Of a DNA stretch of 64,000 nucleotides, positions 11,650 through 59,100 are shown in pieces. This DNA is from Rotaria sp. (lineage: Eukaryota), in assembly GCA_905250055.1 (NCBI GenBank), contig CAJNOF010000042.1, positions 403,805-467,804 of the forward strand. The letters are read 5' to 3'. Numbering within the stretch: the first letter of the stretch is position 1; each line of letters begins with the position of its first letter. Position numbers and translations under genes: made by a program. The notes under the pieces are model-generated. The model saw only the letters and a list, made by a program, of their open reading frames with translations, did not search any database and had not been told where the DNA came from.

Positions 11650-11878
11650 TTCTATTGTAATGAATAGCTTCTGTTTTTTTTTCTTTTTCTTTTTTTGAAA
11701 ATAGCTGAATCAATAAATTTTACAATAGTTTTCGTTTTCTTTTTTTTGCATTTTGATAGCATGCTCCCTCTGTTGAAAATTTCTATTGATGAGAACTAAA
11801 AACCTATGTGTTTTATGTAGGTGTATGTGATGAGTAAATGTTATTGTTTCAATACAATATTGAAATTACATTAATAAG

Positions 11879-13188
11879 ATGAGTTATAACGTAGAACTAA
11901 TACCAATTTCTGAAGGTAATCGTATAACAGTAAAAAAAAATGAAAAAGTTATTATTGGACGTGGATCATCATTAGGTGTATGTTACAAAAAGATAATTGA
12001 TTTTTTATTGTTTACAAATTTTTTGAATTTTTTTTTTAAATAGTGTAATGATAAAAAAATTTCTCGTCAACATGCTGAATTATTACTTAAAAATGATGAA
12101 ACACTTTGGATTAAACCAATTCATACTAATCCAGTATTTTATCGCACTTTTCATGGTAAAACAATTCATTTGACTAAAGATATTGAACAAGAATTAAAAG
12201 ATGGTGATCAAATTGGTTTATTACCAACAAGTTTTTTCTTTCGTATTAGTTTTTCTATGAATACAAATAATAATAAAGACGATTTATCTACATCATCAAA
12301 TCAACAGTCACATTATTCAGTAAATAATATTGCGTCTGATAATCTAAAATCAACTAAAATATCATCTCAAGATACTTTATCTAAAATAAAAAGTCCTGAT
12401 GTTGAACCAAAACCATACATTTCAGATATTGATGATTCTACTTCTTCTTCTATAAAAAATCAAGTATATTTTTATGATATTAATATGTTGTACTTTATGA
12501 ATGTAGTTTATAGAATGAATATGAATCAGTTGATTCAAATAATAAATCACGTATATTACCAACATGGATGATAGCATCAACAAAGACTACATCCAATTCT
12601 TCCTGTCTACATGATTCATCATCTAGTGATCGTCCTGCTGTTAAACGGCAATGTAAGTACATATTTATTATAATGAGTCTATCTCAAATAAATTCTCAAC
12701 AGTGAATTCAGAAGAAGATAACAAAAGTAATACAAATGATTTATCAAATACGTCTGGTAAATTCTATTATATCTTGTTTATCTATTTTTCCTTTTTGTTC
12801 TTTATTTGTTTTTTTAGACGCATCAGTTACAAAGTCAAGTAAATCATCCGTAATAAAAAGCTTTGATAGTGATAGTAGTGATGGATTTGATTCTGTTACT
12901 ACAAAAAAAAGTATTCATAAATATTTATTATTGATTATTGACTACAGTTTGAATTTAGTTAAATCAAATGATAAACGTCGTCCAGTTTGTTCATATGGTG
13001 CATCATGTTATCGAAAAAATCCAACGCATCGTACTGAACAATCGCATCCAGGTGATTCTGATTATGAGGATGAAAAACAAACGAATAATGATAGTAAAGA
13101 TGATAATGATATTGATAAACCGATATGTCCTTATGGTAAATCTTGTTATCGACAAAATCCTCAACATAAACGTGACTACACGCATTAA
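11879..13188 (+). CDS. APLF: APLF-like NHEJ scaffold: FHA domain + Ku-binding motif + two PBZ (PAR-binding) zinc fingers, 5 exons
   Basis: Exons 11879-11977, 12044-12463, 12514-12652, 12703-12756, 12818-13188 (GT..AG introns 50-66 nt, phases consistent). N-terminal FHA-like domain: MSYNVELIPISEGNRITVKKNEKVIIGRGSSLG|CNDKKISRQHAELLLKNDETLWIKPIHTNPVFY...DGDQIGLL. Exon 3 carries the Ku-binding motif NKSRILPTWM. The C-terminus has two C-x5-C-x6-H-x5-H PBZ fingers: PVCSYGASCYRKNPTHRTEQSHP and PICPYGKSCYRQNPQHKRDYTH. This domain combination is diagnostic for APLF. Confidence 0.8.
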
Positions 13189-15360
13189 GTTCGGTATTTT
13201 TTTTTACTAGTTAAATAACCGGTGATTATACATAAATGAGACATTCTGTTTTAGAAATTATTGTATTTGTATGTATATAGTCTATGTAGTAAAGGAAGAT
13301 CTCTAAGTGCAAGTCTCTATTATCCATCGGCTTTCTACCAGTTTATAGAATTCTATGAACTGATCACGATAACGTCAAGTGTATTGTTCTCCATAGACTA
13401 TCTTTAAGAAGTTAAATGGATCTCAAACTTCATCGATACATCTTAATTGACTGTATACATATACGCATAGTCAACATAAATAGAAGTCCCAATGAGTTCT
13501 GTACTTTTTAATATTATTAATACGGTGATTTTATGGAATTAAATAATTTATGTTTATGTTGATGTGGATAGATAATGAAGGGGTATTTAATGTTAATGTT
13601 TTTGATGCTGAGAACTAAACTAGCATAAGAGCTACAATTTACGAAATAATAGCTTACAGTCATTTTTCAGAAGTTGAGATCAAAGTAACTCCTCAAAAGA
13701 TATTCTATGGAGAAGAATGTACAATGTTATTGTGATTAGATCAGAGAACTCTACAAACTGGTATAAAGCCAAATGGCAACGGTGACTTACACCTATAAAC
13801 CTTCTTTCGTCAGTGTATTGTTGCTACAGGATGTTGAAAAAAAACAACAACAGTGTATTTGAGAATGAAACTTTGAAATGAATTATTTTTAAATGATTGA
13901 TTGTGATACTATTTTAGGTTATTTTGTTTGAATAATGTACTGATGCTCTAATTGAAGTTTTACTAAATAAAAATACATATAATCAAGCTTATGTTAAGCA
14001 TAAGCATTTAATGAATGTTACTATTTGATTTTTTCGATCTGACAAAAACTATTAAATATTTTGTTCAGACGATTACATTTATATTTTATTTATATAAAGT
14101 AACAAAATAATTACTTTGTATCGTGAATAGACGATTGTGTCTATCTCAGAAGAACTGTAAACAAAAGAATTCATCGAAGTATTGTTCACACTATTGTTAG
14201 ATTTTTTTAATTAAAATGCTAACCACATTTATTTTTGAATAACTTTCGATTATATACAACTATTAGAATCGAATTTTCATCACTAGATAGATCAATTTTG
14301 AGGACATCAAACTGTGTAATATTCATTAGATTCTAATATGTTCTTCATGCATATGTGTAGGTAAGAGAGTCATGTTTTCCCATAAAATTCCCAGATTTCA
14401 GAAAGCTTCCCTTAAAACATCAATCCAGAATAAGGATAAAAAAATCGAACAATTGTATATAAGTAATAGAACACTCTTCGTGCTATATTTTGGCTTGATT
14501 TGAGCCTAAATTTTCTACGAAAACTTGTATAAATCGGCAACGAAAAACATATCCATTTTGAAAATATTTATGAAGAATTTCTTTGAAATAGATGAATGTT
14601 AGACAAATAGGCATCTCTAAAATTGCTTCATTTAATGACGAATACTCAACCTAAATAGCTATGAACGATCGAAAACTATTCAAAAAATGGTGATTGATAT
14701 TTTAATAAAAATTTGACAATAGAGTTATACTACGATTAATAATTTTCAAATAGCAAAACAATCAATGTAGATGAAAAAATTTCTTGTATTAAAAACAAAC
14801 TATTTAACATCTACAAAAACAAATGCACAGATGTTTTGTGCCGGTGTACTTCTATAGTGACTTATTTTCATTATTTTTATGTATTTTTGTTGATATTTTA
14901 CGTACGTTTTTTCATCTTCTATATACAGAAGATACATAAATATAAGAGATATATCTCTATATGTCATATATTTGAATTGGAATAAGTTTCCAGAAAATCT
15001 ATAAAAGTCTAAAAAGACAGATAATGAGTTTTGTTATACTAATCATTCATTATCGCATGTATTAATTTGATCATCGTATTAGAGGCTGAAGCGAATAAAA
15101 AAATCTCCATTCGAGTTTGATTCGATTCTGTTCAGGCGATTACTGTCCGAATGGAAAGTAGTCGAAAAAATATGATTAAAAGCTGATTTACAACAAAAAA
15201 TAGATAGATGTCATTTGACACTCGGTATTTTATTAAAAGCAACGCATGTTGCTTTAATATACGCATATGATTACTGAATATTAAAAGATTCACTCAAGTA
15301 AACGGTGTTTAAATTGAATTATACATCTGTGATATACTATTAACTTTCCGCATCTAAAAT

Positions 15361-39938: not shown

Positions 39939-40623
39939 AAATCAACAAATAATTGTATTAATAACTCTCGTAAAAACATGCTCGATAAACAATGTTAATG
40001 TATATATTCATAGCAAGCAAAATAATCTTTTCTGTTTTTCATCTGTAATGTAACAAGAGTTTTCATGGGCGATTGAACAACTACAGTGTAATTTCACATT
40101 TTAATCTCGTATGAATTGTACTGAAAGCTTTTTCATTCTAGTCATCACTGCATACATACTGTAAATAAATATTACTATTATTGTGGTGTGAAAGTTGATC
40201 TTGTTATTATATTTTGTCAAATTTTATTGATAAAAATTCTATCAACAAAATAAATATTGATATATTTTCAGGTCAAACAATCTTATCAACATAGTTCAAT
40301 ATCTTATAAGATCTTGTAAAATTATATCTTCGATTTTTTTCTGGCTAAAATAACTTTGTATGGCCGCATTTCAATTTATGGAAAAGAAGTGTATGAGTAT
40401 ACAGTGTGGCTTTTCTCTTCTTTCATGTCCAAACCTACATCCACACCCTCGCATATTTATGTTCTATTTTCAGTAATAATTGGTAATGGCCTTAATGATT
40501 TTCGATGAAAATCTCTTTATTGCAGTCGACAAGTAAATAATGTTAGAAAACTTCACGATTAGAATAATAAAAATGAAAAGTAAAATTATCAAGAAAGAAT
40601 AAATATCACTCAACTCTTATTTC

Positions 40624-42940
40624 TTAATTATTGTCACGATCAATTCCGATAAGAATACGTTGAATAAACATATCCCACGATGAAACGTTCAATTCTAATT
40701 GTCTACAATATACATTATTACGTTGACTAGCTAGTTTATAGAATTTGATCGCTTTGTCAATTTGTTTGCTCATGTTAGCAGGTGAATAGTTGGAAAGATC
40801 AACCTTAGCAAGATATAGACATTAGGTTAGGGAAAATGAGAAGGTAGAAAAATATCAATTTACTTTGATTAGCTCACTGTTAAATAAAAAGCCAAATGTA
40901 TTTTGTTGTGAAGCTCCAGTTTGAAGAACGAGCCAAAGTAGAATAACACCCGTACCGATCAAACGAAGAATTTCATTACGTATGTTTAAAGCTAACAAAA
41001 TTGAAGTACGTGTTTCAATATGTTAATAATAAATTATTCGATCTTACCAAGAGAGTTAAAACCTTGTTCATATAAATAGCGTTCAAGATCATTGAAAGTA
41101 TCAAGATTGATGTGAAGTATGTCAGCTAAGTCTTTATTTAGCGTAAATGAACCATCCTAGATTCATAATTGAATGTCAAACAATAAATAATTAATGGAAT
41201 TTCAAATTGATTCTACCTCGAATTGAAGTTTGAGAAGTTCTTCAATCATTGTTTTTGTTGATTGAACATCTTTCAGTTTACTGAGAAGTGGAATATCAAC
41301 CTTTGCATCTGAATTCATATATAGTTATTATTGCAGTATATCTCACAAATAATAACAAAAGACAAATTACCGAATGAGGTAACGGATTCACCACAGAAGT
41401 TGTGTATTACATTTTCAGTTTGACCATCAAGCTGACAAAAAACAAAAAGTGGACAACCAAATTATGATAAAACGATATGATACATACCATGTACAATGGA
41501 TTACTAGGCTTGCGATCATAAACTACAAAATAACAACAATTAAATATCATTTACTTTTTTTAACACTGACTAGATTCCGCTGCGAAATCTGCATCACTTT
41601 GTACATATTGAATATGTCGCTTTATATCATCGCTTGTGAGTCCTAAACACATTGAAATGATATTTAATTATGATATCAAACATCAAATTAATTATCGTAC
41701 TTTTCTGACTACTGGGGTCAACAGTGAATGAAGCTTTGGCACCCGAACGTACTTCCTCAGCGTCGATACGAACTATACCATAGGCATCGACATCCATGCG
41801 AATAGCAATTTCGAGCGTTTGAGCAGCGAAATTGCTTGATAGACCAGAGAGACTAAACTCACCCAAGAATATCTACAATAGAGAATGCTAACAAATAATA
41901 TTTATATATGTAGGAAACTACATACATTGTATTTTGTAAGCGCATGTTCGCCTTCATATATGCGAATAGTAGCTGTTGTCTGATAGGCATAAGCATTTGT
42001 GAATACTGGAAAAAGTTGAGTTTTCGTTGGAATTGTTGTATTACGACGAATGAATGTGTGCATGTGACCATGAATGTCTTCAATGCCCAGACCAAGTGGA
42101 TAGACATCGAGGAGCAGTAAGTCGGAACGAGATGTATCGGACATTGACACAAAGTTCATATTTGATTTAATGCTAAATTTTTAGTTTAGTCACATTTCAA
42201 AAGTACCATCAATAAAGAATGACGATGAATAATTAATCATCGTATGCCTCTGTGGAATTTTTTATAACTTACCATTTTCTTTTTACCTTCCTTCCGCGCC
42301 GCATGGATTCTGATCTTCTACTTTCAAGTTCGTAGTCTAGCATATCGTCGTCATCGTCATAGCCTTCCTCCTACACATAAACAAAATCTCAAAAAAAAAA
42401 AGAACTTATATTTATGTACATACTATGGTCGGTCTAACCCGTTTTTCTATTGAGATATGACCTTCGTTACACATCTCAAGAATTCTTGAACCTTGATCTC
42501 TATGAAAGGACATCGAATACATTTGGGGTGTGTCATTCTGCGCTACACCACTTGAGCTGCGTGATTTACTCACAGCACCCCAAGCGCGATCATATTCATC
42601 ATCACGTGACGAGGTGCGTGGCCGTCTTTCTATGTCTATTGTTCATTCATCAAAATAATCAAGGAATCAATATAATTCTAACTTACTGATACTGATGCGT
42701 GAATTAGACTGTGATGCCTTTGAAGGATTCACACAATATGTACTTATGCTTGATGGTGATGACTTCCTCTCTCTTGACAATGATATTGTTGAGTATGATA
42801 GTGCCGGTGGCGGTGGTGGCGGTGGTGGTACCAGTGGTGGTGGTGGTAGGGGAGGAGCAGTAAAACCAAATTGTGAACTATTAGCAGTATAGGCATGCGA
42901 CTCATATAGCGATGGAATGTCGACACCTAAAACAAACATT
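40624..42940 (-). CDS. Gene encoding an Hsp70 substrate-binding-domain (SBD-beta)-like region with proline-rich/acidic upstream exons; no nucleotide-binding domain found
   Basis: Minus ORFs 41902..42159 and 41627..41866: IKSNMNFVSMSDTSRSDLLLLDVYPLGLGIEDIHGHMHTFIRRNTTIPTKTQLFPVFTNAYAYQTTATIRIYEGEHALTKYN and ...LGEFSLSGLSSNFAAQTLEIAIRMDVDAYGIVRIDAEEVRSGAKASFTVDPS. They align to the Hsp70 SBD (LLLLDVTPLSLGIET...IKRNTTIPTK...VYEGER.MTKDN.LLGKF.L.GIPPAPRG.PQIEVTFDIDANGIL.V.A). Further minus exons near 41580-41450 (LTSDDIKRHIQYVQSDADFAAES, lid-like), 41440-41380, 41330-41240, 41160-41055, 40985-40865 and a terminal exon to the stop at 40624. Upstream exons encode EEGYDDDDDMLDYELESRRSESMRRGRK (42360-42265) and PPLPPPPLVPPPPPPPP (ORF 42667..42939). 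Exon boundaries are approximate. Confidence 0.5.
42786..42860 (-). repeat. (GGT/GGC)n trinucleotide tract encoding poly-proline on the minus strand (poly-Gly on plus)
   Basis: gccggtggcggtggtggcggtggtggtaccagtggtggtggtggtaggggagg. It lies inside the proline-rich exon of the Hsp70-SBD-like gene. Confidence 0.7.
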
Positions 42941-43516
42941 TACTTAAAAGATAGCACATCTAACATGTACAACTGGCAGTAGACTATTGAGGATGCCGTA
43001 CTACAACAGACAACGTTCTTATTATTGTTCTTTCTGCTTTAAGAAAAAATTAAGAGAGAACGTAGACGATATTGATGGAAAATGACACATATAACTGCTA
43101 TAATTCTCTAGACAAGCTAAAAGATAGGCGATTACTCGACGAATGAATCTTCATTCAATATGAAAATATCATTTCCAAAAAAAATTATTGGTAATTCGAT
43201 ATCTATCATCGAATATTGGAGGTTTAATATAGTCTTTTATCAACGTATCATGATTTGTTATTGATATTGATCATATTTTATGCTGCAATGTAATATTGAA
43301 AGAAGACAAGAACTAGCTAGTTGTCGACCAACAGGAGATAATGATTCTTTAGCAAAAAATTATCCAGGTAATTAATGAATACGCTAGCACATGAAACATC
43401 TGGAAAATCATGACGGTAACTAATGTCAGTCGAGGCAAATTGCAGGCAGTACAATCCATCATTAACGGAAGATATATACCATTATGATTCTTTTGAGAAA
43501 TTTTAGAGACCGTCCG

Positions 43517-43530
43517 GATATATATATATA
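43517..43530. repeat. (AT)7 microsatellite
   Basis: ggatatatatatatatcc, read directly. Confidence 0.5.
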
Positions 43531-45119
43531 TCCTGAAATGTTTATGATGTCTTGAAAATCTTTTACATAGTTTTCCAAAGAACAAGAGTATCTATCATGA
43601 AAAATGGGGAACAAAACTTGCAATTGATACTTTCAAGCATGATGGTCAGAAGTTAAAATCCGATCGAATGTGATATTAAACTGTAAGATAAGAAATATGA
43701 AACTTTTAAATTTAAAAAAATTTATTTTCGACATTTTTCATAATTTTCTCATTTCGATTCAGTATAAAACTGCAAGTTTTCATGCTTCGAACTATCCTCT
43801 AAAACATGTTGTCCAATACATTTTTATCTGCTTAATCTTTTATTTTACACATCATAAATTATGTTTCTTACATCGATATTCTTGAATGATGTCATCTATC
43901 AAATGACTACTTTTAACGAATACACAAAAATATCTGTCATCTACTCTGTTCATCGTGAACATTATGATCAATGAACAATTCATTCACAATGTATTTGCGT
44001 TGTGGTTAAATAAAATGAACCCTTTATTGAGCAAGTTGTGCATATTTGGAGACAACTACTTATTTCACACAATCGTGAATAGAGCATAGAAATACACTAA
44101 AGGCTTTTAATTGATAGTTAACTCATGATGTATCTATCTTTGATGATAAATGTATACTTGCTGACTTTCTTAATCACTATGAAGAAATCGAAAGATTGTT
44201 GGTGTAGATGTGCTGATGTGGATGTCAGTAAGAGCGATTGAACAGACTCACACCTACACATTCACATCATCGAAATGTACATAGTGATACTATTTAACTG
44301 GTTAGCGTTTTCAGTATCAAAACTCTAACTAGTGATTCATTTTGCGCGTAGATTGGAAAAACCTTCCCGAGATTGTATATTTATTGATATATGAGTTGAC
44401 TGATTTCTTCCGTAATACTATTTATGTCTGTCAGAAAAAATTTGTTCTCGAAATAATTTGAATTTTACTGTTTATCATGTTTCTCCTTGTGTAGTTACTA
44501 CTCAATTATGTGACTAAATAAGCATATTTTTACTGAGCATGTGTGATGTACTCAGTTTGAATTTTCGAATGAAACATTCTACTGCGAACTTCGACTAACA
44601 ACAGAACTTACCAATAAATTAACCTATATGATACTGAACATGTACACATACGGATTTATTCACTGACACTTAAAGTGATCTCAAGATCTCAGAGGTAAGC
44701 AAACATGTTTCACGAAAAATATATGTGCTTATAATTCTATTTTCGTTTGTTGCTTATTTCTATGTTTCATTTTTCATCAAGACTACAAAAAAAAGAGCGA
44801 AACTACGAGAAAAGAACTGGCAACATCTGATTGTGCTATAAATTCCTATTGTACTAAATAGATTTTAATGTAGCTCGACTTTAATACAAATGAAGGAGCA
44901 GTATAAATACATAGAGACAAAAATTCAAATCTTACCTCCACCTAGAGTATCACTAGTAGTGGGAACTCGGTTAAGATAGCTAATTGATGATGATGATGAC
45001 GTTGTTGTTGGAAGAGGAAGCGGAGGAACACGAGCAAATTGAAATCCTAAGAAACTCGATTGTATTAATTCAAAAAGCGGCGGTATCGAGTGCAAAAATG
45101 AATATGATTCTTTTCATGA

Positions 45120-45750
45120 CTAACCAGGAACAAATGATTGTGCAGCATCAAAAACGCCACCTACACTTCTGCTTTTGCTACGGGAATCAAAATCTAAAAG
45201 AGAACGAAAGTGATATTTCTTGGGTAGCATTGACTGACCAGATGAGAAGCTTTGTGAATGGCTCTGCGGAATCATCATTGGCATATAAACGGCATTATTC
45301 TGAAATCCACAGGGAGATGAAGGTGAAAATGTGGCTTGCATCTGGGATCCCATAAACGGCAATGATAGGTTATTATTGTTGGTGTTGTTTGTTGTCGAGT
45401 AATCTGCAACAAAAAGTAATTCACTACTCGATGAATGCAACAATATTCCATGTGGCAACGTCTTACCAGGAAAAGGTTGTGGTGTTTTAAAAGCACTTTG
45501 AGATTGTGACTGTAGACTAGCACGAGGAGATTGTATCTCAGAAAACACCGTCGATGTGTTTCCTGTTAATGTCAGATCAGAAAAAAGCCCTGGCATCCCA
45601 TCTCTACTTCTAGCTACCGCTTTTTGTTGCATAAATTGTTGTGGTGGTTCTTGTGGTGGAGACGGTCGAGTAGATGGTTGCCAAGATACAGGTGGCGGCG
45701 GAGGTGGATGCGATGAAACTAACGATAAGAAGAAGATAAAATTTGATTGA
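45120..45750 (-). other. Low-complexity Ser/Gln/Pro-rich ORF (possible upstream exon(s) of the 40.6-42.9 kb gene, or an independent disordered protein)
   Basis: Minus ORF 45120..45632 extends upstream in frame to about 45720: ...SSHPPPPPPVSWQPSTRPSPPQEPPQQFMQQKAVARSRDGMPGLFSDLTLTGNTSTVFSEIQSPRASLQSQSQSAF... There is no recognisable domain. It persists as an open frame over 600 nt in a ~32% GC genome, which argues weakly for coding. Confidence 0.25.
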
Positions 45751-48700
45751 ACTTCGTATCAGTTAGATATTACTAGCTTATAAAGTAAAACCAATGGTTT
45801 CTTTTTGTAGTCAAATCGGACCTTTCTAGTTTCCGAAAGGAACTAATGAATCATAACAAGACTTATTCGGATACATTAAGAAAAAAAGTTTCCACTTGAA
45901 TTCTATCGGTACATGATAACGTCAAATTGTCAAGATTTAAAATATATTGAAGTCTGTGCATACACGTATCAACACATTTATAAATCGCATAGGACCTACA
46001 TTGAATAATTAGTGTAAGCAATCATTTAATCGAGGCAGATGTTCACTTAATATTGGGTTTATTGATGTAATAGAGTCATTTCAAATTAGAATATTAGTGT
46101 TTTAGTCTTCGAATACACAAACAGTTACACAACTATAGAGTTAGCATTTTTTACTATATTAGAAAGAGAAAAACTGGAACATATTTTAATGAGGTATATT
46201 CATATTTTCGAAGTTTTCAGAAGCTCAATAATCACATAGCAGTGTAAATCAAAGTTTTTGAGAAATATTGGAAATTAATTATAAGTGCGTTGGTATAACT
46301 TATTCTTGAATTCAAATAATCTTCAAAGACATTGAAATATGTTGCCTTAGTTTTTTGGCATGCTAACTTGTAATTGAGGATAGAAAGTCATAACCTAGTA
46401 AATCAACTTTAGGATCAGACTACGTTCAGTCGATGGATTATCAAGAAAGAGGTATTATTGATCACTATGAAATTCAAAATTTTGATCATTTTGTAACCTT
46501 CTGTTTTTAATTATGTTTGATATGGATTTTATCACGATACAAAAACTATGTGATATGTTTTCCTTCACTTTTCAACAGAATTACAGGTCGTTGATATTTA
46601 CTCTTATTTCCTTCAAAACAATGGCAAATGTATTAGACCCACGATCATATTGTAAAATAGTTCTGTTTTTATCTTTTGCACTAGTTGAACAATACTAGGA
46701 ATTAGAATAAGAAAATATAGTTTTGAAAGCAATTTAAACAACTTTGATTTTATTGAACTTTGCTCTCAATGCTCACTCTTGATAATAAAAGTTGCATAAC
46801 TCACGTGATGGCAAATTGTAGTACATGTCCATGTTTTCATTGAACAAAACGACATTCATATCAGCATGTTCGTTGCCTTTATCATCATCTGCTGATGCTT
46901 GCCATCTTGACCGTCGGCGTGATGAACGCTTTCCAGATGTACTTTTCGCTGCTAAAAATCAACACACACTTAAAGTAAAGAACGTTTCGATCAGACACAG
47001 AAACAAATCATCTATTCAGCTTTCGAAAAATAAATATTGTCAAAATATTGAAGTGCTAATTTTCCTTGTTCTTCTTATAATCATCGAAGAGAAATTGATG
47101 TTTTTTTCAATACCATCAACAAAATTTTTCAAGAATGATCTTCGCTTTGTCGATTTTTCACATCAAGAATTTGTTTTGAAATAAAATGAATAAGATATTC
47201 AGAATTGATGTAAAAAACTGCATGGAACAACATGTGTTTTTTTTTGCAAGCATATTTTTTGTGGCGTACCAAGTGTTGAATTTCAATTAAAACTAATTTC
47301 CTATGAAAAATATGTAGCACACTATGTTTTCTTTTTGTAAATTTATTTCGAATACTGTATTCATTTTATTTGAGCGCAAACTCTTGATGGTAAAAGTCTC
47401 AATATTAGGAGGATACTTATTTTTAAAGAGTATTATTACTAATGTTGAGAAATTGTAGATTTCTTAATGAAAGAATAAAAGAAACTTCATACTTTAATTC
47501 ATTACTAATCGATCGATGGTTACAATAAAGTATAACTAAAGATCATATTTCATAGAATATTAAATATCATTTTCAGTTGAACCCGTATGAATATAATTTG
47601 CTTATTATGATGTAAATACTTTTTCGACTAAGTTAAATATGAACAATATCAAGATGAAGTCTTCTCATTCGATTGAAAATCTTTCTCATTTTATAATTAG
47701 TAAATAATTTATAAGGACTTAATTCAAGAAAATTACATATTAGAGTAGTTGAGCAATAATGAAATGGTTAATATTCTGCAATTTTTTGATAACGTATCGT
47801 ACTCTTTCTGTATAAAGATTTGATGTGTATAGTATTAGAAATGTTAGCTGTATTTAGGAGCGATTTTTCATTTATTGATAATGATGACATAGAGAGTCCA
47901 TTAGTAGAGTCTGGTGTTTCACCTCACTGAAAAGAATATATCAATTTCGTTGTCATTCTCATATATTGTTTCATTTTGTGTTAATTCCTTCAGAACGGCT
48001 TCGAACATCTCGAAGTTAATTAAAACGAATAATACAGACTTCTTTGAAAAAGACTTCTGTTTGTTTTTTTTTCGTGCAAGTCATTGCGATGCTCTTAAAT
48101 GCTTTACTATACGTTAACAGTCATATATCGTATTTTTTTTTGAATGTATATCTTTTCGATGTCAAATATTTTAACTTTAAAACTAGACTATGAAGTTCTT
48201 TTACAGTATTCAAGCAAATCTGTTTTATTTCACTTTATTGAAATTCTCTAAAATGATTTTCTAGTTTTGTTGAAGTTTTGAAAATACAATATAATAGTTG
48301 TTCAATTTTGCTTTAGATCATTCATGCTATCAAATTTTCCTAGTCTAGACTCTAAAAATCCTACTTAGTACAATGTTCAACATATTTTAGATCAATAGCA
48401 ATAATATAGCTTTTAAAAAACGCATTGATAGAAAGATTATAATAAAATATGCTCCTCGTATATTGTGCTGAATTTGCATTTCAGATATGGATGCATACAA
48501 ACATAAACCCTATCCATTTCTATTGTTCATTGAGAGTTCATACGCTTCATATAGAAAATCACTTAGTATTCATCCAATTTTTTTTTGCTTTGGTTTTTTA
48601 GGTTATACTTCAATAACTACTATAAACTCTATCTCTAGCAGAATTGAGAAAAGAATACTTGTGTGTATGTTACTCCATAGTCAATTGACTTAGTCTGACA

Positions 48701-49368
48701 AAAATAAATATATATGTGTTACATATATGTTATCAATTATTAAGATTTTTTTGAGATTTATCAAGATTCACATGATACTAACAATTTTTGTTTCATTATT
48801 GTATGTGGAATTTAAAGATTAAAAATTCATGATAAAAATCGGACTCACCCTCTCTCAGTCTAACTCAAATGTATCGATAATTATTTGATTGTCGTATGTG
48901 TTTGAATCTCTTGAAATTTTGTGAATTCAATAGGAAAATGAATCTCTATTTATTCTCGAATTCGAAATAAAAGATATATCACTCCAGAAACCTACGATCG
49001 AAAGATAAAGACGACAACTTATTCTTGCTCTAGGTTGCTTCACACTCTGCAACTAAGTTTTTATCGTTTTCTGCCCATTGTTCGACTGTAATGAAACTAC
49101 TCAAATACTATAATATATACAAACTAAAAGAATCCAATGGTTTGTTTTTGCTCATCACTTTAATGATGAACAGCGTGTCTAAAAATTTAATTTTGTTCTA
49201 AATCATATGATCGCTCTCTTTCTCTCTCCCGCTCATTTGAGGTTTCTGAAGTTGAAATTCATGAGTTCTAATTATGATTCTTCTTACCGTCATGGTCGAA
49301 TAATAATTCACTAAAAGATAATGAACACGAAATTTTATTTTGAATATTTCCTTTCTTTCTTTTACGTA

Positions 49369-52300
49369 CTATTCATCATTTGTGATCATCAAATTATTAG
49401 CTTCACATCGTTGTTGTAATGCTTGTCGTTCTTCTGTCGTTGCACTAATCATTTCGATCTTAATATCTAGTTTATTTTTCAAAATTGACATTTGTGAATC
49501 TCTATTCTAGATTAATTAACATACCGTTTCGTATTTTGTCTTCAAGTTCATTTGCTTTTTCGTGTTCATTCAATGAATAACGATACGTATGTATAATAGA
49601 CATCATCATATCAAACTTAGGATCACCACCAGCTCGATAGGAAATTTTTTCACAAAGTTTTTCAATATCAACAATTGATTCTTTTTTGCTTTGAATCGAT
49701 GCACATTCGAGTGAAATACGTGCATCAATCAATTTTTGTTTAATCGAAACTAAATTTGTTACATCACCATTCCATTCAATGTATGGTAGTAAGTCAATAT
49801 CTCGATCAAGCATAACATCCAGAAGACGAACGCCTATCACAGAATGTATACAAATAAATATTCTCATTATTAATATACATTAGATTTTGACTAACCTGGT
49901 TGACGAATTTGTCTATCTGTTTTAGCATCACGTTCTTCGATGGCAACAAAACTAGTGTATTCACTAACGACAGAATGTTTGATACTTAGATCGATGAGAT
50001 CTCGTTTACATTGAACTTTGATTAGTTCATTTTCACTCTCGTTCACATGCAATAATCCATTTTCATAATCATTAATAATCGCTCGAGCAGTTAGACAATG
50101 TAGAATATGTCCTTTGGTCGTTGTTATCGGACTACTAAATACCGTCGTAACAAATTCTTGTCCATCGATAGTAGCTGTTAATGTTGCCTTGTGACAATTT
50201 TGTATAAATCGATAGACACTAAGTCGCATTCCGTTGAACAAAGATCGAATCATTTTCGGTGCTTGCATATTGAATTTTTGTTCTGTATCTAACTGACCAT
50301 GCCAATCGATTGATATACTTGTAATACAAGGTTGTCGGATTTGTTCGAGGATATTTAAAATTTTTGTTTTCCATTTTGATCGATAGTTCGAATCGAATAT
50401 TGTTGCTAGACCGCCTCCACATGCTCCACGAGCTAATTGTTTCAAACTGTGTTTGTCAGCAATATTACCTATTGCACATGTAAATAAACGATCATGACGC
50501 ATAATCGATTGATGTTCGAGCAGTGTAAGAATCGATTTGAAATCATGAATATGCCCATCGGATAGAAGAATGAATTGACGGCCAAATTTCGATGATGTTA
50601 ACGATGGTAAAAGTGAATAACGATGAAGAACAGAAAATAGATCTGTATTACCACGATGGATAAGTGAATGCTAGAAAATATGTCGAATGTATACATTTCA
50701 GTGAGAAAAATTATGTTCAAGATAAAATTACCAACCAGAACAAAATGTTTGGCTTTATCAAGATTTTCTTTTGTTGTTAGTGTTGAAATCGGAAAACATT
50801 CATCATTATCTAAATAATTGAAATTTGCACAGTAGAATAATACTATTGACAACCATCTTATTACCTGATCCAAAAGTAACTACATTGAAAATTGTATTTC
50901 TATCATTAACTTTTAAATTCATAAGAAATAAATGAGCTAATTGTTTAGCCTGTTGTACATGACTACCATCCATCGAATTGGATACATCAATAATAAAAAT
51001 AATTTCAATTTGTTCGTTCGAATTCATTAATGTTTCAAATCGCGGATAAAATGTAAGCATACATGCTTGAGAATTATTGTTCGATGTTGCTGTTGTTGTT
51101 GTTGTGACTTGGTCATCATCCAATGACAATGTTTCATTTGATATTCGAGGTAAATTAGCACTTTTGAGTGTTATAGAAAGAACAAAATCTCGATCAAGTA
51201 AGACGTTATCGACAAGTTCAACCATAGCTATACAATCAGTTAATTTTCGACGAAGACGATGTGTTGGTGAAAATAATTTGATGATTTCATATGGCATTCG
51301 AATCGATGCTTTGAAACTGAATTCAACTTTTTCATCAACAATACCAATAGATCGTACAATCGATTGATCTTTTGCTTCAATTGCTTGTTTCGATTGCCAT
51401 GAAGCCATTTTAGCTGGAAGACGAAAGATGATATCACCATTTTCGATTTCTAACTCAGCAACATAGGTTATCTTAATGATGACTTCATTATTCGCTGGTA
51501 AATTACCAACAGCTACGCTAAACACTTGAGCTTGTTCTTGATGCATCAAATAGGCACCATGACCTTTTTCGATTGCTTTTCGATATTCTTGTTTGGCTTG
51601 TTCTTTTTCTTTAACGACGCCTTTTATAACTTTATTGTTGATATGTGCTTCAAAACCGCATACAGCCGAATTTTCATCAAGAGGAAACACATATTTAGCT
51701 TCGATCGGTGTTGAACTTGTGTTGTGGTAGACTTGATAGAGAACAACCTTTTTTTTTTGTTAAAAAGAAATATGATAAACTAGTTATACTTTAACAAAGC
51801 GACAGATATATTTTACTTCAACTGTAGAATCAACAATTTGAGCACGAATATGAAATGATTTAAGTGGTACAAGTTTTCCTGACGATGGACATACTAAACC
51901 ATAGTCTTGTTCGGCTACTTCAATGACTTCATCATCCATTGTCAATGGAACTTCGACTAGAACATACAATATCATCTGATCGAATTTTATTCGAATAAAA
52001 CAGAATCATTAGTACCATTTTCACTCAATTTTAATGCATGTTGTTGATGATGAACAATTGGCAATCGCTCTAATTCGATATTAAGAGCATCGTTCGGTGC
52101 CCATGAAACTTCTATAATGTATAGTAAACGCTGTTGATCGAGTTGATAGATCGCATATTCATTATCCTATTTTGATAAAAATCTTATTAGTGATTGCACG
52201 ATTAAGCATATTGCTAGACCAAAGTCGACATAAAAGTCTTGGATCCAAATGTATCTCTCATATTGGATCTTGATTTTTATCTCTAGTAGATTCATATTAA

Positions 52301-55300
52301 TGTTTCACATCGATGTTAACAATGGAAGCAAATGAATAAAGATTTAGCTGAGACAAAAACCTAAGACTCTCTATCTTATACCATGTCTATGTTCAAGTCC
52401 TAGGATGTATATAAGTTTGATTATTTCGGATTTTTCCGTTGAAATGAAATTAAGAGCAATTCTAACATAGATCATAGATCGACTTTCAGTGATGCATCAT
52501 GCGCTTTGGGTATGATATAGAACTCTGCCTTATGTAAAAGGACATGCATTGATTGAATTATGTTTTACTTTCCACTTCAAAATGATACTTCAGTCAAGTT
52601 AAATGTGCATTTGTAGCTCAATTTTCTATTCCAGAGTACAAGAAAACAGTTAAAACGCTTGTTTCCTAGATTGAAGTTCTGGATACATTAGATGATCTGA
52701 AATCTTCTATTCGATCTCTTAGAGAAATGTTGTTTTTAGATGCACTCAGTGACAGTTATCATTACTATATAGACTATTGTTTGATAGATTATACTTATTT
52801 TGGCTTTCATTCACAATGACATTGTCATGAAACAAAGCGAAATGCATCTTTCATTACAACACTATTCTTTACATAATGAGGTCTTGGAAAGCAGTTGAAA
52901 GTACTCCGGATTTTGTAGCTTTTTAGTCATTGAATAAAAAAAAACGGAAAGCTTTTGTATAACATTCTACATGAAATTTGACGAATACCACTTTTATACA
53001 AGACACTTGTCGAAACGTTCGTCTCATGTTTGCATACTTGTTTGGTTTCAATTTAATTGTCAAAAAAATTACTTATAGAACCTATGGGCACTATATCAAC
53101 TTTAAAGTACACTGCATAGAAGGCAATAAAGTCTCGTTCATCTGTTCTACAAAATAATCTATGTAGTATCGATTCAAAACGTGGAAAATTCTTTAAAAAG
53201 TTCTATTAATTCGAATCAGTTTAGATTCATAACATTAGTGTCTGTTCAACTTTTAGAGCTCTTTTTAATGATGTACGTTAAAGTTAAAAGTTTTAATCAT
53301 TTTGTTTTGCAATTAAATTAAAAAATTTGCCCATTGAGTGTTATATGTTTTTAAAAACACTTCTTATCAAAATACAGCCTATTCAAATTGACATCGAACG
53401 GTACATAAAAGAGTTTTTCAGCATGAATGCAACGATCAAAGTCGTCAATATGAACATTTATCACATAAACAAAGGATACTGCGCAGGATCTGTCGAGAAA
53501 ATCTAATATGAATCTTATTTTGTGCAATCATAACATGTATCCTTTTTCTTCATGATTAATTTAACCAATGGAAACTACAGAACGAGTGATAAATATTTTA
53601 GAACTTAGCAACACGTTGTAGTACGCACATGAAATATGATGAAATACTTTTTTCTCTATGATGCAAAAATTTTAAAAATGAATGACGTGCTTGTGTATAA
53701 ACACTTTGCTTTTATTATCAAATGAATCATGATGATATCTCGACATTTTAGTTAAAAATGAAAATGATATTCATGAACAGACTTGAGTGACACAACATGT
53801 ACTCTTTTTGTTATTCAGCGATAGGATTCTCTCTTGATTATCACTAAACTGATAACATTTCAAACGAAATAAATCAAATCTTACATTTTTACTTGAGAAA
53901 AAAAAAGTTAGGTTCGTTGATTCTATCCAATCAGCCAAAATTTTCGAAAATATTCTTTTTTTCTTTGATGAAACATAAGAACTCTGTAAACTACTTACGG
54001 TAAACATTGAATGATTTTCTTCTGTTCGTTTGACTCCATGTGTACTATGAAAGCCGTCAGGAGGTTTGGTGAGATTCGGTGAAAATGAATAATAGTTGGC
54101 TGATTCGCCTAGAGCTACTTGACAAATGCACAATAATCGTCGACCTGGTCGTGTTGTGCTTGATGTCGTATATTTTAGAGATGTAGAAGCAGAATCTGAA
54201 AAGTAAATTCCATAGCCAAGACAACCAATATCAGTGCGTATGACACCTAATTCTTCAACTACTATTTTTGGCATAGTCAAACCACTAAATGTATATAGCC
54301 AAACTATAAATAATGTCTAGAAGATAAAATGAATATTTTACCGTGAAAGAATTCCAAGAAAGTTGGCATATTTTGATCCATGAAACAGTGACCGTTGATG
54401 AGATAATGATGTACAAAAATTCAGTGCATCTATCTGTTTGGCTACGTTGAATACATGGTGAATAACAATTTTTTCACTACTAGTGAACAAAAGCAAAACT
54501 ATCATTATCAAATCAAATGTTAATGTTTCTTATACCTATTTGTCGATGATTGAATAAGTTCGGCAATATTCTTATATTCGGGTGTTGAACTATCAACTGT
54601 TTCAATGTGACATTTCAATGCTCGATATTTGGCTTCGATCGGTGCTTTAATATTCCAATTGGTTAGTTCATTGACTGTTAGCATATCTCGAAGCATCTGG
54701 AAGAACGAAAGATTAAAGTAAGCAATGGAAGGAAATAGACGTACTTGACACAAGTCAATTTTTTCGGTTAATACTCGACGATTCTTTAGCAGATCAACTT
54801 TGTACTGTGATTGATGGGGAATAAGTGAATAAAAACGACGTACAGCAGCAGGATCATTGTTCGATCGAAGTTCAAGCAAAGCTGCTTCAGCTTCGATGAT
54901 CTATTTAATAGTTGGGAGAAAAAAACCTAGTTTGAATGTAGTAAAATAAATGTGTATACCGCTTTGAGAGTGATTGATTCCGGTGGCACGCTCAACATTT
55001 TATTCAAATCACCAATAGATTCTAGCCAAATTGATTCTATCAATTGACATACATTCTCATCAAGTATTTGTGTATCGATACGATGAGTAAATAAAGTCTG
55101 AAAAGAGTTTTTTTTTGAATATTATTTCTTTTTGTTAACGTCATTTATGTACTTACGCGTAACAATAGTTTTGATCCTAATTTATCAGGTAACACCTCAC
55201 GAATTCGTGTTATACGTGGCATTGTAGCCACTCGATAATAGTATGATGCAAACAATTGTTGCTGTTCATTTGGATCATCACTGAATGCATACTGTATCAA

Positions 55301-56122
55301 TACTTTTTTATCTTGTTGTTGTCCTCTGTCCGTAATAGTCTGTTTTTCGTATCGAAACCGTAGTCTATAATCAGTCATTGTTCGATCATAGTATTGTTCA
55401 GGAATAACTTGAAGTTCGAGAACAAAATACACATCCAAATTATCGTTGGTTTCCTGTGATAAGTAGTAGAAATATTAACGAACAATAGGTTTATATACGC
55501 ATAGAACTATACTTTGAAAATGGCCCATTTGCCAATTTCACAATGTGTAGACTCATCAAAACGAGGCAAATCAGCATCGTCCCAATTCCATAGTTTGATT
55601 TTATTCAAATCAAATTTATTGATCTTGATGGCACTCGTCCGTGGTCCTAATAAACAAGTATGTCCGGCATGTTATTTAAGAAAGAAAAAACTTTGAATAC
55701 CTGCGACGGAAATAGTGCCGGTCTTTGTAAAATTTTCCTGATCTTCAACCGATTTGATGATATATTTACTAATATCTAATGATGTTTGGTCTGGTGGCAA
55801 GCGACGATATTCGTATACATATTCAACATTGATCAATGGCAGGCCGAGTTGTTTAGCACGACGTGTCTTGTAGGTATTTACATTATTCGTGACCAAAATG
55901 TAGTCAGTCTAAAGAAAAAAGTCACCTGCGACAGCATGTTTGTGGAATAGAACAAAAACGTACACTCGCTGTAAGAATATATGAAATGTGTGCTTGCTGT
56001 TCTCGTAAATAGTTTATCAGTTCTTGCTTAGCTTTGAAGCCTATTTCATGGCCAAGTTCAAGTACAATCGTTTTGCCATTGAATGGTGACAAAAATGAAG
56101 TAGATGTAATAGTTTGTTTCAT
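49369..56122 (-). CDS. PARP4: PARP4 (vault poly-ADP-ribose polymerase)-like: BRCT + PARP regulatory + PARP catalytic + VIT + vWA, ~16 exons
   Basis: Hand-traced minus exons (approximate): 56122-55964 and 55908-55701 (BRCT: FNGKTIVLELGHEIGFKAKQELINYLREQQAHISYILTAS|TDYILVTNNVN...AKQLGLPLINVEYVYE); 55646-55513; 55453-55157; 55097-54960; 54900-54745 and 54696-54536 (PARP alpha-helical regulatory domain: SIGDLNKML...PPESITLKA, IIEAEAALLELRSNNDPAAVRRFYSLIPHQSQ...); 54479-54351 (...SHQRSLFHGSKYANFLGILSR, the H of the H-Y-E triad); 54283-53989 (GLTMPKIVVEELGVIRTDIGCLGYGIYFSDSAS...PDGFHSTHGVKRTEEN); 52168-52002 (DNEYAIYQLDQQRLLYIIEVSW..., catalytic Glu, end of the PARP fold); 51975-51817 (...LVEVPLTMDDEVIEV...GKLVPLKSFHIRAQIVDSTVE, VIT start); 51747-50865 (VIT: EAKYVFPLDENSAVCGFEAHINNKVIKGVVKEKEQAKQEYRKAIEKGHGAYL...; vWA MIDAS: IEIIFIIDVSNSMDG...VVTFGSG); 50809-50736; 50670-49896 (GNTDLFSVL...ILLSDGHIHDF...RLFTCAIGNIADKHSLKQLARGACGGG...HCLTARAIINDYENG...VSEYTSFVAIEE); 49833-49525; 49466-49369 then stop. 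All junctions GT..AG. The catalytic C-terminus and the VIT start are joined through a 26-nt GT..AG segment (52001-51976). Confidence 0.75.
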
Positions 56123-59100
56123 CTGAAAGTGATCAATGATTTCTTTAACGAACCTACGAATGTATTCATTTTTACTGTTGTTTTCGCATAGATGTCATAA
56201 TACCATTACAATGGATACTCAGAGTTAAATATCAGAGTATCATAAATAATATTTAAGTAAAGTGTATTTACCTTAATACTCTAAATATTATTTCCACAAG
56301 TAATTATCACCTCAGTACTCTCAAGTCAAATATATATTGAGTGTGGATGCACTTGCGTGGAAGATGGAGTATGTAGTTATGGGACTGGAGTGGATGTGAA
56401 TGAATGAAACTATACATTATAGCGCTGAAGTCATTACTCCGTTAGATGATGTTTGTGTGATGGAAGTGAATACCCTTCACTTGGGTACTTTAGTTGATAT
56501 TGTACTTTGTAAATATCGATAGTGGGTATAGCAGTATTAGGATATCACTCTGTTTTCACTTGCAATAGAATACAGAAATAGAAATGATTGCTATCACGTG
56601 TTTTCAATGTAATCGTGTGGAAGTACATGCGCTAGTTCCTGATTACTAACACAATTACCTGAAATCTGGCTTACAGAAAAAGAAAAGAAAAAATGCATGT
56701 TGTTCGCATTATTCTTCATACCACTACGCACGTTGTGCATGTTGTGTTATTACACAAGCTAACAAAACAGGTATATTGTGGAAATATTGACAAGTCATGG
56801 AGCACAACATTAATGCATTTCATTAGTGACATCGTCGCTAACTGCACATATCCGTGTATTATTCATTCGTCAAAATTGTGATATTTGATATCTAAATTAG
56901 AGGACTTACAAAATTCACAGCAAGCAGATTTCAAGAATTCTGTAACGTGGATAAGAAGTACAATCATAATTACATACAAATATTAAAAAAACACTCCCTT
57001 CTTTCTAATAGATGCAAGAGATGTAACATATACGTTAATGAATTTCACAAAAGAAGGCTTTCTACCAGGCAAGGTAGGCTATATTTTGATAATAATAAAA
57101 CTGTTGATGCATAGAAAAATGAGCGAACTATTTAAAAAACGTTTGGTAACGCGCTGGCAACACTTTTCTAAATAAATATCCTAGAATATATATATCAGTT
57201 TAGAATGCCAAATTAAGAATGTTAATATGTAGGTGAAGCTATTACAATTGTTTGTATGTTAATAATGTTTTCTTTTGTTTTCGAAACGAAATAGTGTTCT
57301 CGATAAGATAGAAGAAGATAAAGTCGCACACAGATTAGTGAAGTTTGAAAAGTAATTGTCATTTCTTTTCATAACTATTATCACCAACTTAAATCGACGC
57401 ATAAAATATAAAAGCTTACATAAGGCCTGTAGATTAGTATGATTGGTTGTCTTGTTTTCGAGAACTTGAGTGTCCAGTCTCAATTCTTCTGGTTTACCGT
57501 TAGTGAAATAAGCTTTGTTATTGTTTCAAATTACTATTTCAGCACAATTCTAGAAGCTGGTTTGTGTTCTTGTATTCAATCAAATTCTGTTTATTGACGA
57601 TTCTTATACATAAAAGCTAAACATGATCTACAAATTGTATGGCTATAAGCATAAAATTGACCATACTTGCAGGTGTATTTTGATACACTTGAAACTGATA
57701 CTTCAGTTTGTAGCTCATTCGAGGATTACTGTACGTGTAATTTCAGATATATTCCTGAGTTGATGCGAAGTGGAAAGCTTGAGGGTGTGGATATGAGCCT
57801 TGTCTCCATGCCTTACACACCCACACTCTCTTTTATTGACCTTGGTCCTCTTGTGTGAACTTAATTTATTTTTTACAATAACACATAACTGTTGTGTCTT
57901 TTTATTAGCTTTTTTAGAAAAACAAATGCCAACACACACCGTACAGTGTTTGTGTGCAGTATTTTTGAGCTTAAGTTACATACTGACAATACTCATGATT
58001 AGGCGATATGCATAGTTCGTATTCATCTTTTCCATCTTATTGAGAAAGTTTGACTGTCTCTGTAAATAGATAAGCTTTGTTTTTTTCTATTGATATGACT
58101 GTTGAACATCGAAGATTGAAATGAAGAAAAGTGATCGAAGAACTGTTTAGTTAAATCTATTGTTTGTAAAAGAATTATAACAAACTCTTTGATTCGAGTC
58201 TAAGAACATGTGTGATCCTGAATTTATTATTCAGTATGTCAATAAAGTAAATTTGAAACGAGGTAGACTAATGTGCATAAAATCAGTTGATGCTAAAATT
58301 TCTACAATAATGAATGCATGACAATGATAGAAATAGTTTAGAAAAAAAAACAGCATTCATTAACGGGTTATTACGGTCATATAACTAATTAATATTTGTA
58401 GTGTATTATTTTTTCTTATTCTTTTTATATTTTACTAAGATGGCAAGTGATTAAATTTACAGTTAAAATATCTATAGAAAAACGAAACCACTTGCATATA
58501 AAAAAAAACAAACTTGACATTCCACTAATATCTAATGAAGAAAAAATTGTCTGTCGAAATTTCATAATTGAATATCAAGTTTTATTAATTTATTTTGACT
58601 TAATTCTTAATTTTAAATCTAAATAAATTTTCATCTTAACAAAATTTAAAGGAATAAAGAAGAGTAGTTTACCAAAAAATATTAACTGAAAAAAAATCAG
58701 ATGTCGCAGAATCACTGATTAAAATGTGTAACAATAGCTTGTGTTGTAATGAATATGTTTAACTTACTACTGTAGGAATTGTGTATCGTTGATAATTCAT
58801 GCTGCTAAAAGCGAATTATATCAAATGATTTTTTTTTCTAAATGAGAAATAGAGTCCAGTTCGAAATCTAGCCAAGATTGTCTTCAACTCATTTCTTTTA
58901 TTAAAAGACTGAGCTTGAAGTATTTCAGAGCTTCTCGTCGTTTGCTACAAAAGAACTTTTTATACATTGCAGCCAACACGTTTTTTGCCCATGGATATGA
59001 AATAAGTATGAATTGTTCAAACTGATTTCTTTGTCATGCTGGAAGATTTGATCTTTGATGAAATCATGAAGTCGCAAAACGTGTCTTTTTTTGTATAAAA

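Follow-up and report, generated by a model that had tools for sequence, protein, structure and literature searches.

A predicted PARP4 gene of the bdelloid rotifer Rotaria with an Hsp70 substrate-binding module beside its putative vault anchor

The window analysed here, a whole stretch of 64,000 nucleotides from Rotaria sp. contig CAJNOF010000042.1, contains on its minus strand what is best explained as one gene running from 56122 to 40624. We read it, with a probability of roughly 0.7, as an orthologue of the vault ADP-ribosyltransferase PARP4 that carries both a substrate-binding module of the chaperone Hsp70 and a C-terminal vault anchor. A first-pass annotation had described a complete PARP4 architecture within 49369–56122; the domains that it listed are indeed present there, but the architecture is not complete, as the vault-docking domain probably lies beyond 49369. 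The window is AT-rich eukaryotic DNA (about 31% GC) with very short introns. The host is a bdelloid rotifer, since the spliced protein is 99% identical to a public 'unnamed protein product' of the bdelloid Rotaria sp. Silwood1 (P0001); the tail of another model from Rotaria sp. Silwood1 (P0152) is an exact match to the window allele.

The part of the gene noted first begins with a minus-strand ATG at 56122 and is read through 16 exons. All 15 of its introns are GT–AG and phase-compatible, and 14 of them are 48–69 bp long, the other being 1832 bp. The earlier description of BRCT, PARP, VIT and vWA regions on one strand with phase-compatible GT–AG joins is thus confirmed, while the protein of ~1700 amino acids (aa) that had been expected from this span comes to 1368 aa. 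The TAG that closes the span falls in frame only when intron 16 is retained; one public model, P0153 (1368 aa), terminates at this same codon. A 3′ end reached by read-through at 49502 was considered and dropped after the public models had been mapped; a 25-nt intron at that place was dismissed for its small size. Decay of the locus to a pseudogene was ruled out by the lack of stops and frameshifts and by a low ratio of nonsynonymous to synonymous substitution rates (dN/dS).

Beyond 49369, tblastn searches with P0001, P0003 (from R. sordida) and P0022 (from Adineta vaga) extended the series of same-strand exons as far as 40627. Most probably the gene runs on for 8.7 kb past 49369, to 40624, and 49369 is probably not its 3′ end. 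The resulting 32-exon frame contains no internal stop, and every intron in it is GT–AG (28 of 48–100 bp and three long ones). Exons 1–18, 20 and 27–32 match the public models P0001 and P0152, and exons 25–27 match P0121. For the linker that joins the two halves, exons 17, 18, 20 and most of exon 21 are present in P0001 and P0152; exon 19, the 3′ extension of exon 21 and exons 22–23 were placed by open frames and phase-matched GT–AG sites alone.

The assignment to PARP4 comes from comparisons over the full protein. Among all PDB sequences, human PARP4 gave one collinear alignment (query 228–1263 against 208–1220, E=5e-191), and identity to human and vertebrate PARP4 is 33–39% across ~1000 residues in a single alignment. 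PARP1, PARP2 and PARP3 match the catalytic domain alone, at E values of ~1e-16 to 1e-20 (PARP2 4e-20, PARP1 1e-18), and the match to ITIH4 (2.4e-10) is far weaker than that to PARP4. Because the alignment to human PARP4 is single and collinear whereas those to PARP1, PARP2 and PARP3 are catalytic only, the homology supports the locus as the bdelloid orthologue of PARP4 (vPARP, PARP clade 5A), the identity proposed by the first-pass annotation. In a search of 5.8 billion proteins, the matches listed were led by 42 bdelloid clusters, followed by a protein of the sponge Ephydatia and then by vertebrate PARP4; the latter are the closest named non-rotifer relatives among these matches.

The order of domains agrees with this identity. 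Citarelli et al. 2010 define the clade 5 vPARPs by the order BRCT, PARP, VIT, vWA, and found them only in animals and Amoebozoa, co-distributed with vaults (PMC2964712). Fungi, C. elegans and Drosophila have no vaults and likewise no PARP4 (PMC2964712), in agreement with the earlier remark that this domain order does not occur in nematodes, insects or fungi. The predicted rotifer protein shares with human and vertebrate PARP4 the BRCT, a candidate WGR domain, the helical domain, the H-Y-E ADP-ribosyltransferase (ART) domain, the VIT domain, the vWA domain with its metal ion-dependent adhesion site (MIDAS), the disordered linker and the MVP-interaction domain. The PARP4 core is in itself ordinary: PARP4 occurs in many animals, the locus is already predicted in public records, and the A. 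vaga table labels such genes 'PARP4-like' (PMC10809525).

At the N-terminus, an AlphaFold2 (AF2) model of residues 1–266, with a mean predicted local distance difference test score (pLDDT) of 76.5, matches the crystals of the human PARP4 BRCT domain (9dfp and 9dev) in Foldseek, with a template modelling (TM) score of 0.73–0.76 normalised to the target and a root mean square deviation (rmsd) of 2.4 Å. By sequence, the Pfam BRCT match is below its cut-off (E=0.03), that of the A. vaga orthologue passes the cut-off, and an N-terminal sequence profile searched against the PDB gave only non-significant BRCT matches from DNA ligase (E=1.6). The BRCT domain named by the first-pass annotation is thus confirmed by its predicted structure. 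The following segment, residues 137–255, is modelled as strands followed by a helix (block pLDDT mostly 67–88). It gave no Pfam WGR match, and in Foldseek, where the BRCT took up most of the list, no match to its fold emerged; its position agrees with that of the WGR domain, which an AF2-based scheme of human PARP4 places between the BRCT and helical domains (PMC10450202).

The catalytic half follows. Residues 267–585 match the PARP4 helical domain plus ART structure 8sx1 at E=6e-61, and the Pfam PARP_reg match (2.5e-4) is below its cut-off. The triad consists of H451 (LFHGS; 54382–54380), Y491 (GIYF; 54205–54203) and E562 (DNEY; 52160–52158), each aligned with the corresponding residue of human PARP4, as had been stated. 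The further suggestion that H-Y-E makes the enzyme potentially poly-ADP-ribosylating does not follow, as this triad is not predictive of such activity: human PARP4 has the same residues, and its PDB entries call the enzyme a mono-ADP-ribosyltransferase. The rotifer enzyme is presumably catalytically active. In the VIT domain, dN/dS is 0.04 in each of the two comparisons, with the R. sordida locus and with that of A. vaga. All five MIDAS residues of the vWA domain are present (D910-x-S912-x-S914, T984 and D1013, aligned to human DCSSS / GNTD / SDGH); the site is therefore intact as first described, although the 'TFGS' that had been named as one of its elements is not part of it. A Pfam domain scan of the spliced product, proposed with the original description, finds the VIT, PARP catalytic and VWA_3 domains.

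The first description also placed the end of the PARP fold and the start of the VIT domain in one exon. They are encoded by exons 10 and 11, 59 bp apart; the junction reads ...KLSEN/VEVPL, and the 'LV' of 'LVEVPL' is intron read-through. Upstream of exon 10 is the long intron 9, near which (53.9 kb) a boundary of the PARP part had been envisaged. The orthologous introns of A. vaga and R. sordida, which separate ...HSMFT from DNEY..., measure ~58 bp and ~199 bp, respectively, and the catalytic Glu lies on the next exon together with the final strands of the ART fold. Because the A. vaga counterpart is so short and the downstream exon completes the ART fold, intron 9 is not a gene boundary. Self-BLAST found no repeat of intron 9 within the window, and BLASTN and TBLASTX found no similarity between it and the R. 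sordida and A. vaga loci.

The C-terminal half of such a gene has relatives of its own. VWA5A and the ITIH heavy chains share the VIT plus vWA (ITIH-like) block and differ in having neither the BRCT nor the PARP half. Four Rotaria models of 887–979 aa (P0039–P0042) have Pfam matches for VIT and vWA only, and the N-termini of P0039 and P0040 begin with the PARP4 BRCT region; these four are either paralogues that have lost the catalytic domain or mis-spliced predictions. UniRef calls one of them a 'VWFA domain-containing protein', an instance of the mislabelling as VWA5A/ITIH-like that had been foreseen for the C-terminal half.

The domain that makes the protein a vault PARP is outside the coordinates noted first. 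A profile built from seven bdelloid C-termini had one significant match in the PDB, human PARP4 1574–1699 (E=3e-6). In the human protein this region is the domain that interacts with the major vault protein (MVP), known as MINT or MVPID (PMC10450202; PMC12280208). A Pfam scan of the rotifer C-terminal domain gave no match, and its identity comes from the PDB profile together with a weak, precomputed match to PF26156 (PARP4_MVP-ID) in the orthologues. The domain also aligns with the C-termini of PARP4 from the sponge Ephydatia and from vertebrates and, being common to both, is ancestral to the PARP4 family.

A putative vault system in this organism, as the first-pass annotation proposed, is backed by this predicted MVP-interaction homologue downstream on the same strand and by the MVP genes of A. 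vaga. Five of the latter are over-expressed after radiation (Moris et al. 2024, PMC10809525). One A. vaga gene, FUN_011957, matches a Lottia gigantea protein at E=2.5e-274, and its next-best matches are annotated as major vault proteins; PARP4-like and MVP genes are both induced after irradiation (PMC10809525 supplement). There is no MVP gene among the neighbours within the 64-kb window, and an Rfam scan of the whole window gave no RNA family at threshold, hence no vault RNA in it.

Ahead of the anchor, exons 24–26 encode the interdomain-linker motif DLLLLDV of Hsp70, followed by the whole beta-sandwich of the substrate-binding domain and the beginning of lid helix A. In Pfam, HSP70 is matched over profile positions 383–516 of 599, and the substrate-binding domain is also recognised in the PDB through BiP and Hsc70 (1.5e-23). 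A structure model of the same region from a paralogue (P0024) folds as a substrate-binding domain according to Foldseek (5e85, rmsd 2.8 Å; 2op6, TM 0.71). The nucleotide-binding (ATPase) domain is absent, as the Pfam match starts at profile position 383 and the sequence upstream is low-complexity linker. The helical lid is absent too, as the sequence stops aligning with Hsp70 inside the first helix of the lid and ~55 non-Hsp70 residues follow before the anchor. Compared with the chaperones BiP, Hsc70 and DnaK, the rotifer module has DLLLLDV and the full beta-sandwich in common, is ~40–45% identical to BiP/Hsc70 and keeps the NTTIPT motif; it differs in the missing nucleotide-binding domain, in having only the first ~20 lid residues, and in an insertion of two residues as well as a loop rich in His (GIEDIHGHMH). 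Relative to DnaK, the positions of the hydrophobic arch and pocket are presumably largely kept. With no nucleotide-binding domain and most of the lid gone, the module cannot run an ATP-driven chaperone cycle.

The module is found at the same place in ~12 bdelloid PARP4 models from Rotaria and Adineta, with no Met consistently just upstream of it in the paralogues, and because it lies between two parts of PARP4 it is internal to the gene. In the exons of the module dN/dS is 0.13–0.20 against R. sordida and A. vaga (dS ~0.6–1.0), and in the anchor domain 0.14–0.32; these substitution ratios show purifying selection on both sets of exons. When the last 353 residues were used as the query, only bdelloid proteins among the matches listed joined the Hsp70 module to the anchor, and the next matches were ordinary Hsp70s at 1e-19. 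Vertebrate PARP4 differs in this respect, with PF00012 on none of the proteins among the matches listed, so that an Hsp70 substrate-binding beta-domain ~55 residues before the anchor distinguishes the rotifer gene from its human and vertebrate counterparts. Full-text literature searches that combined PARP4 with bdelloids, or else with both Hsp70 and vaults, did not return a description of this architecture. The pairing of an Hsp70 module with a vault anchor, found only in bdelloids among the matches listed, appears to be undescribed. The supplement of Moris et al. 2024 contains A. vaga PARP4-like genes with an Hsp70 Pfam domain (log2 fold change, log2FC, of 1.8 and 4.5 after radiation), and the main text of that paper mentions neither PARP4 nor the fusion (PMC10809525).

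Several observations weigh against reading all of this as a single gene with a working anchor and clamp. The public models of the locus disagree (1368, 1412, 1583, 1755, 1759 and 1801 aa, plus the separate 257-aa C-terminal model P0121), and the joined models whose C-termini were read (P0001, P0151 and P0152) skip the Hsp70 exons with the frame kept. Three introns measure 1.8–3.6 kb against a local norm of ~55 bp, and a terminator and a promoter might be concealed in two of them. In the comparison with R. sordida and A. vaga, no homologue was matched by exon 19, by exons 22–23 or by the extension of exon 21. The predicted structure of the Hsp70 module is of low confidence (pLDDT ~45–60) and was built from the paralogue P0024. 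Of the four human residues that contact MVP (S1614, K1618, Q1682 and R1689, taken from PMC12280208), only S1614 is conserved; all aligned bdelloids have N in place of K1618, R in place of Q1682 and Q in place of R1689. As three of the four contacts differ from those of human PARP4, vault docking by the rotifer domain is put forward here on its homology, and it would require co-evolution of the rotifer MVP. The single mRNA is likewise a prediction from the genomic frame.

The long introns and the conflicting models raise the question of whether the locus holds two genes. A PARP4 core without a vault anchor would then close with the TAG at 49369 (1368 aa), or a little further on, and a separate downstream gene would encode a small protein of Hsp70 substrate-binding and MVP-interaction domains that would enter vaults alone. 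P0153 and P0158 do stop at ITNDE*, the C-terminus has a model to itself in P0121, PF00012 plus PF26156 are the only domains of many Rotaria and Adineta entries of 250–610 aa, gaps of 3.6 kb and 2.0 kb lie between the parts, and an AATAAA follows the TAG by ~35 nt. However, the split models P0121 and P0124 begin at an internal Met, well inside the Hsp70 beta-sandwich, and can thus be recognised as artefacts of prediction. No stop interrupts the linker exons, their phases fit, and AATAAA is frequent in DNA of 30% GC. Homologues also speak for continuity: the A. vaga orthologue is a compact 7.35-kb gene that continues through the linker with short introns, individual PARP4-like genes of the A. 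vaga annotation combine Hsp70, PARP, VIT and vWA (PMC10809525), and sponge and vertebrate PARP4 have the same C-terminal domain on the same polypeptide. On balance we regard two genes as unlikely, and one transcription unit, judged from the frame and the orthologues, as quite likely. The AATAAA after the TAG (window 49371–49330, minus strand) may be noted in its own right; a short isoform of 1368 aa without the vault anchor, as in P0153, is possible through unspliced intron 16.

The models that join the two halves bear on a different matter, namely whether the Hsp70 exons (42172–41571) enter the main mRNA of a single gene. As a skipped cassette or a decaying remnant they would leave a product of 1755–1759 aa, and P0001, P0151 and P0152 do splice 42745 to 41522, a junction that preserves the frame and yields the same Ile codon. 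Yet the three exons contain no stops or frameshifts, their splice sites are canonical and their dN/dS is equal to or below that of the anchor domain. In addition, P0121, from another assembly of the same species, uses the junctions between exons 25, 26 and 27, and orthologues and paralogues in other Rotaria and Adineta include the Hsp70 domain. Exclusion of these exons from the main mRNA is thus distinctly improbable, and their conservation makes it likely that they are part of a major isoform. No checked public model of the locus has the Hsp70 exons within a PARP4 protein, which amounts to a systematic annotation problem.

Some bdelloid PARP4 paralogues carry another insert in the linker. In P0017, P0018 and P0020 this is a near-complete calmodulin with four EF-hands, 'ADQLTEEQIAEFKEAF...', which comes directly after the exon ending '...ITNDE' and is without the last helix and stop codon. 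The insert presumably resembles canonical calmodulin. A tblastn search for a calmodulin exon found none in the window. In the A. vaga supplement, one PARP4-like gene with EF-hands is radiation-induced, with a log2FC of 2.1 (PMC10809525). Other linkers hold one or two copies of an acidic motif, 'SDDDMGFGLFDD' (P0003, P0009, P0026 and P0043 from the sponge Ephydatia), which is similar to the tail that ends ribosomal P-stalk proteins at the C-terminus; the sponge protein is annotated with PF00428. A search of 40000–57000 (minus strand) for the P-stalk-like pattern 'DDMGFGLFDD' found none in the PARP4 gene of the window.

Both the Hsp70 piece and the paralogue calmodulin could in principle be independent nested genes, merged wrongly into PARP4 by the predictors in all bdelloid assemblies. 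Every model is automated, and the calmodulin insert of A. steineri begins with 'MADQLTEEQ'. Against this, the Hsp70 piece has no ATPase domain, stop or consistent start codon and the PARP4 anchor domain continues in frame after it, while the calmodulin inserts, lacking their last helix and stop, read on into the linker. We consider nested genes hardly credible.

The coordinates of all features are collected in Table 1.

Table 1. Features of the proposed PARP4 gene (window coordinates; residue numbers refer to the spliced product)
Feature	Position	Strand	Details or basis
Whole proposed PARP4 gene	40624..56122	minus	32 exons, 2138 codons, TAA stop 40626-40624
Span noted first	49369..56122	minus	exons 1-16, 1368 codons, TAG stop at 49371-49369
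BRCT domain, aa 12-118	55714..56089	minus	AF2 model + Foldseek
Beta-rich domain at the PARP4 WGR position, aa 137-255	55190..55605	minus	AF2
PARP helical/regulatory domain, aa 267-400	54589..55097	minus	PDB 8sx1
ADP-ribosyltransferase domain, aa 404-585, split by intron 9	52089..54579	minus	Pfam PARP 6e-25
Intron 9, 1832 bp, GTAAGT...AG, phase 0	52167..53998	minus	inside the catalytic domain
Exon 10, last PARP strands	52166-52016	minus	
Exon 11, VIT start	51956-51817	minus	
VIT domain, aa 629-751	51463..51900	minus	Pfam VIT 1e-38
vWA domain, aa 904-1057	50425..51006	minus	Pfam VWA_3 6e-13, VWA 5e-11
Rest of ITIH-like region and helical tail, aa 1058-1368	49372..50424	minus	human PARP4 alignment runs to residue 1220
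Low-complexity Pro/Ser-rich linker, exons 17-23	42273..49310	minus	includes two long introns
Long linker intron, 3569 bp	49287-45719	minus	
Long linker intron, 2009 bp	44935-42927	minus	
Hsp70 module, exons 24-26, aa ~1782-1937	41571..42172	minus	Pfam HSP70 6e-26
C-terminal helical MVP-interaction (MINT/MVPID) homologue, aa 1985-2138	40627..41264	minus	

Self-BLAST of the three long introns against the window revealed no repeats. The two in the linker share short collinear patches with the R. sordida locus in BLASTN and TBLASTX comparisons (window 48983–45833 and 44782–44533, minus strand, against 8303–13868 and 14477–14669 of L001), and because these patches are common to both loci the introns are old rather than recent insertions. 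Missed exons and transposon genes were rejected as explanations of the patches, all of which contain stop codons; they are conserved non-coding sequence and may be regulatory or splicing elements. Another short stretch of the linker, 'intron 18' (45467–45403, minus strand), is 63 nt long, a multiple of three, and has no stop, and a 212-codon frame (45758–45123) is open throughout it; it may be retained as coding sequence rather than spliced.

The neighbouring genes are unrelated to PARP4 and encode a short-chain dehydrogenase, a glutathione S-transferase (GST), an FHA plus PBZ protein, a diacylglycerol kinase, a Trk-type transporter, a zinc dehydrogenase, a G protein-coupled receptor (GPCR) and a tryptophan dioxygenase. 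The FHA plus PBZ gene is APLF-like (12044–13185, plus strand), with an FHA domain (Pfam 3e-5) followed by two PBZ zinc fingers (zf-CCHH 2e-23). PBZ is a poly(ADP-ribose)-binding zinc finger, and ~27 kb separate the gene from the 3′ end of PARP4. In A. vaga, APLF belongs to the repair genes induced by radiation (PMC10809525).

If the single gene is read as proposed, the following arrangement can be envisaged. The C-terminal domain would dock the protein on the inner wall of the MVP shell, and the disordered linker would tether inside the particle the PARP1-like half, a candidate for nucleic-acid sensing and ADP-ribosylation, together with the protein-binding vWA block. The Hsp70 module, kept near the wall by the anchor that follows it after ~55 residues, could act as an ATP-independent clamp for hydrophobic peptides. 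Such a clamp might capture unfolded segments of client proteins, or it might bind the retained 'LLLL' linker motif of a neighbouring molecule; the top Foldseek match, 7a4u, is a lid-truncated BiP oligomer in which LLLL-type binding between neighbours occurs.

A similar arrangement is known from engineering. Foreign proteins are packaged in recombinant vaults by fusion to the PARP4 mINT domain, so that a functional domain stands directly upstream of the docking domain, as it does in the rotifer protein. The MINT–MVP interface has been described (PMC12280208). The rotifer arrangement differs in being natural and conserved within PARP4, and packaging by it is a candidate function. That bdelloids have turned PARP4 into a natural vault cargo adaptor, with the Hsp70 clamp and, in some paralogues, the calmodulin-like module as its working parts, is a doubtful proposal.

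The anchor also bears on the history of the family. In the view put forward by Lodwick et al. 2025, it was in 'higher order organisms' that PARP4 took its place in vaults (PMC12280208). A docking domain found alike in the PARP4 of a sponge, of rotifers and of vertebrates points to an association with vaults older than they propose, and if the proposal made here is true, docking of PARP4 to vaults would be older than the vertebrates, contrary to that view (PMC12280208).

For the rotifers themselves, the same proposal, if true, would place client-binding and Ca2+-sensing modules in the vault lumen. It would also tie vaults to the handling of damaged proteins during recovery from desiccation and radiation, when the PARP4-like and MVP genes of A. 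vaga are co-induced. What vaults do is a question of long standing. A conserved Hsp70 domain beside the predicted vault anchor, in animals that survive desiccation and radiation, offers a concrete hypothesis about that function, in terms of peptide binding and cargo.

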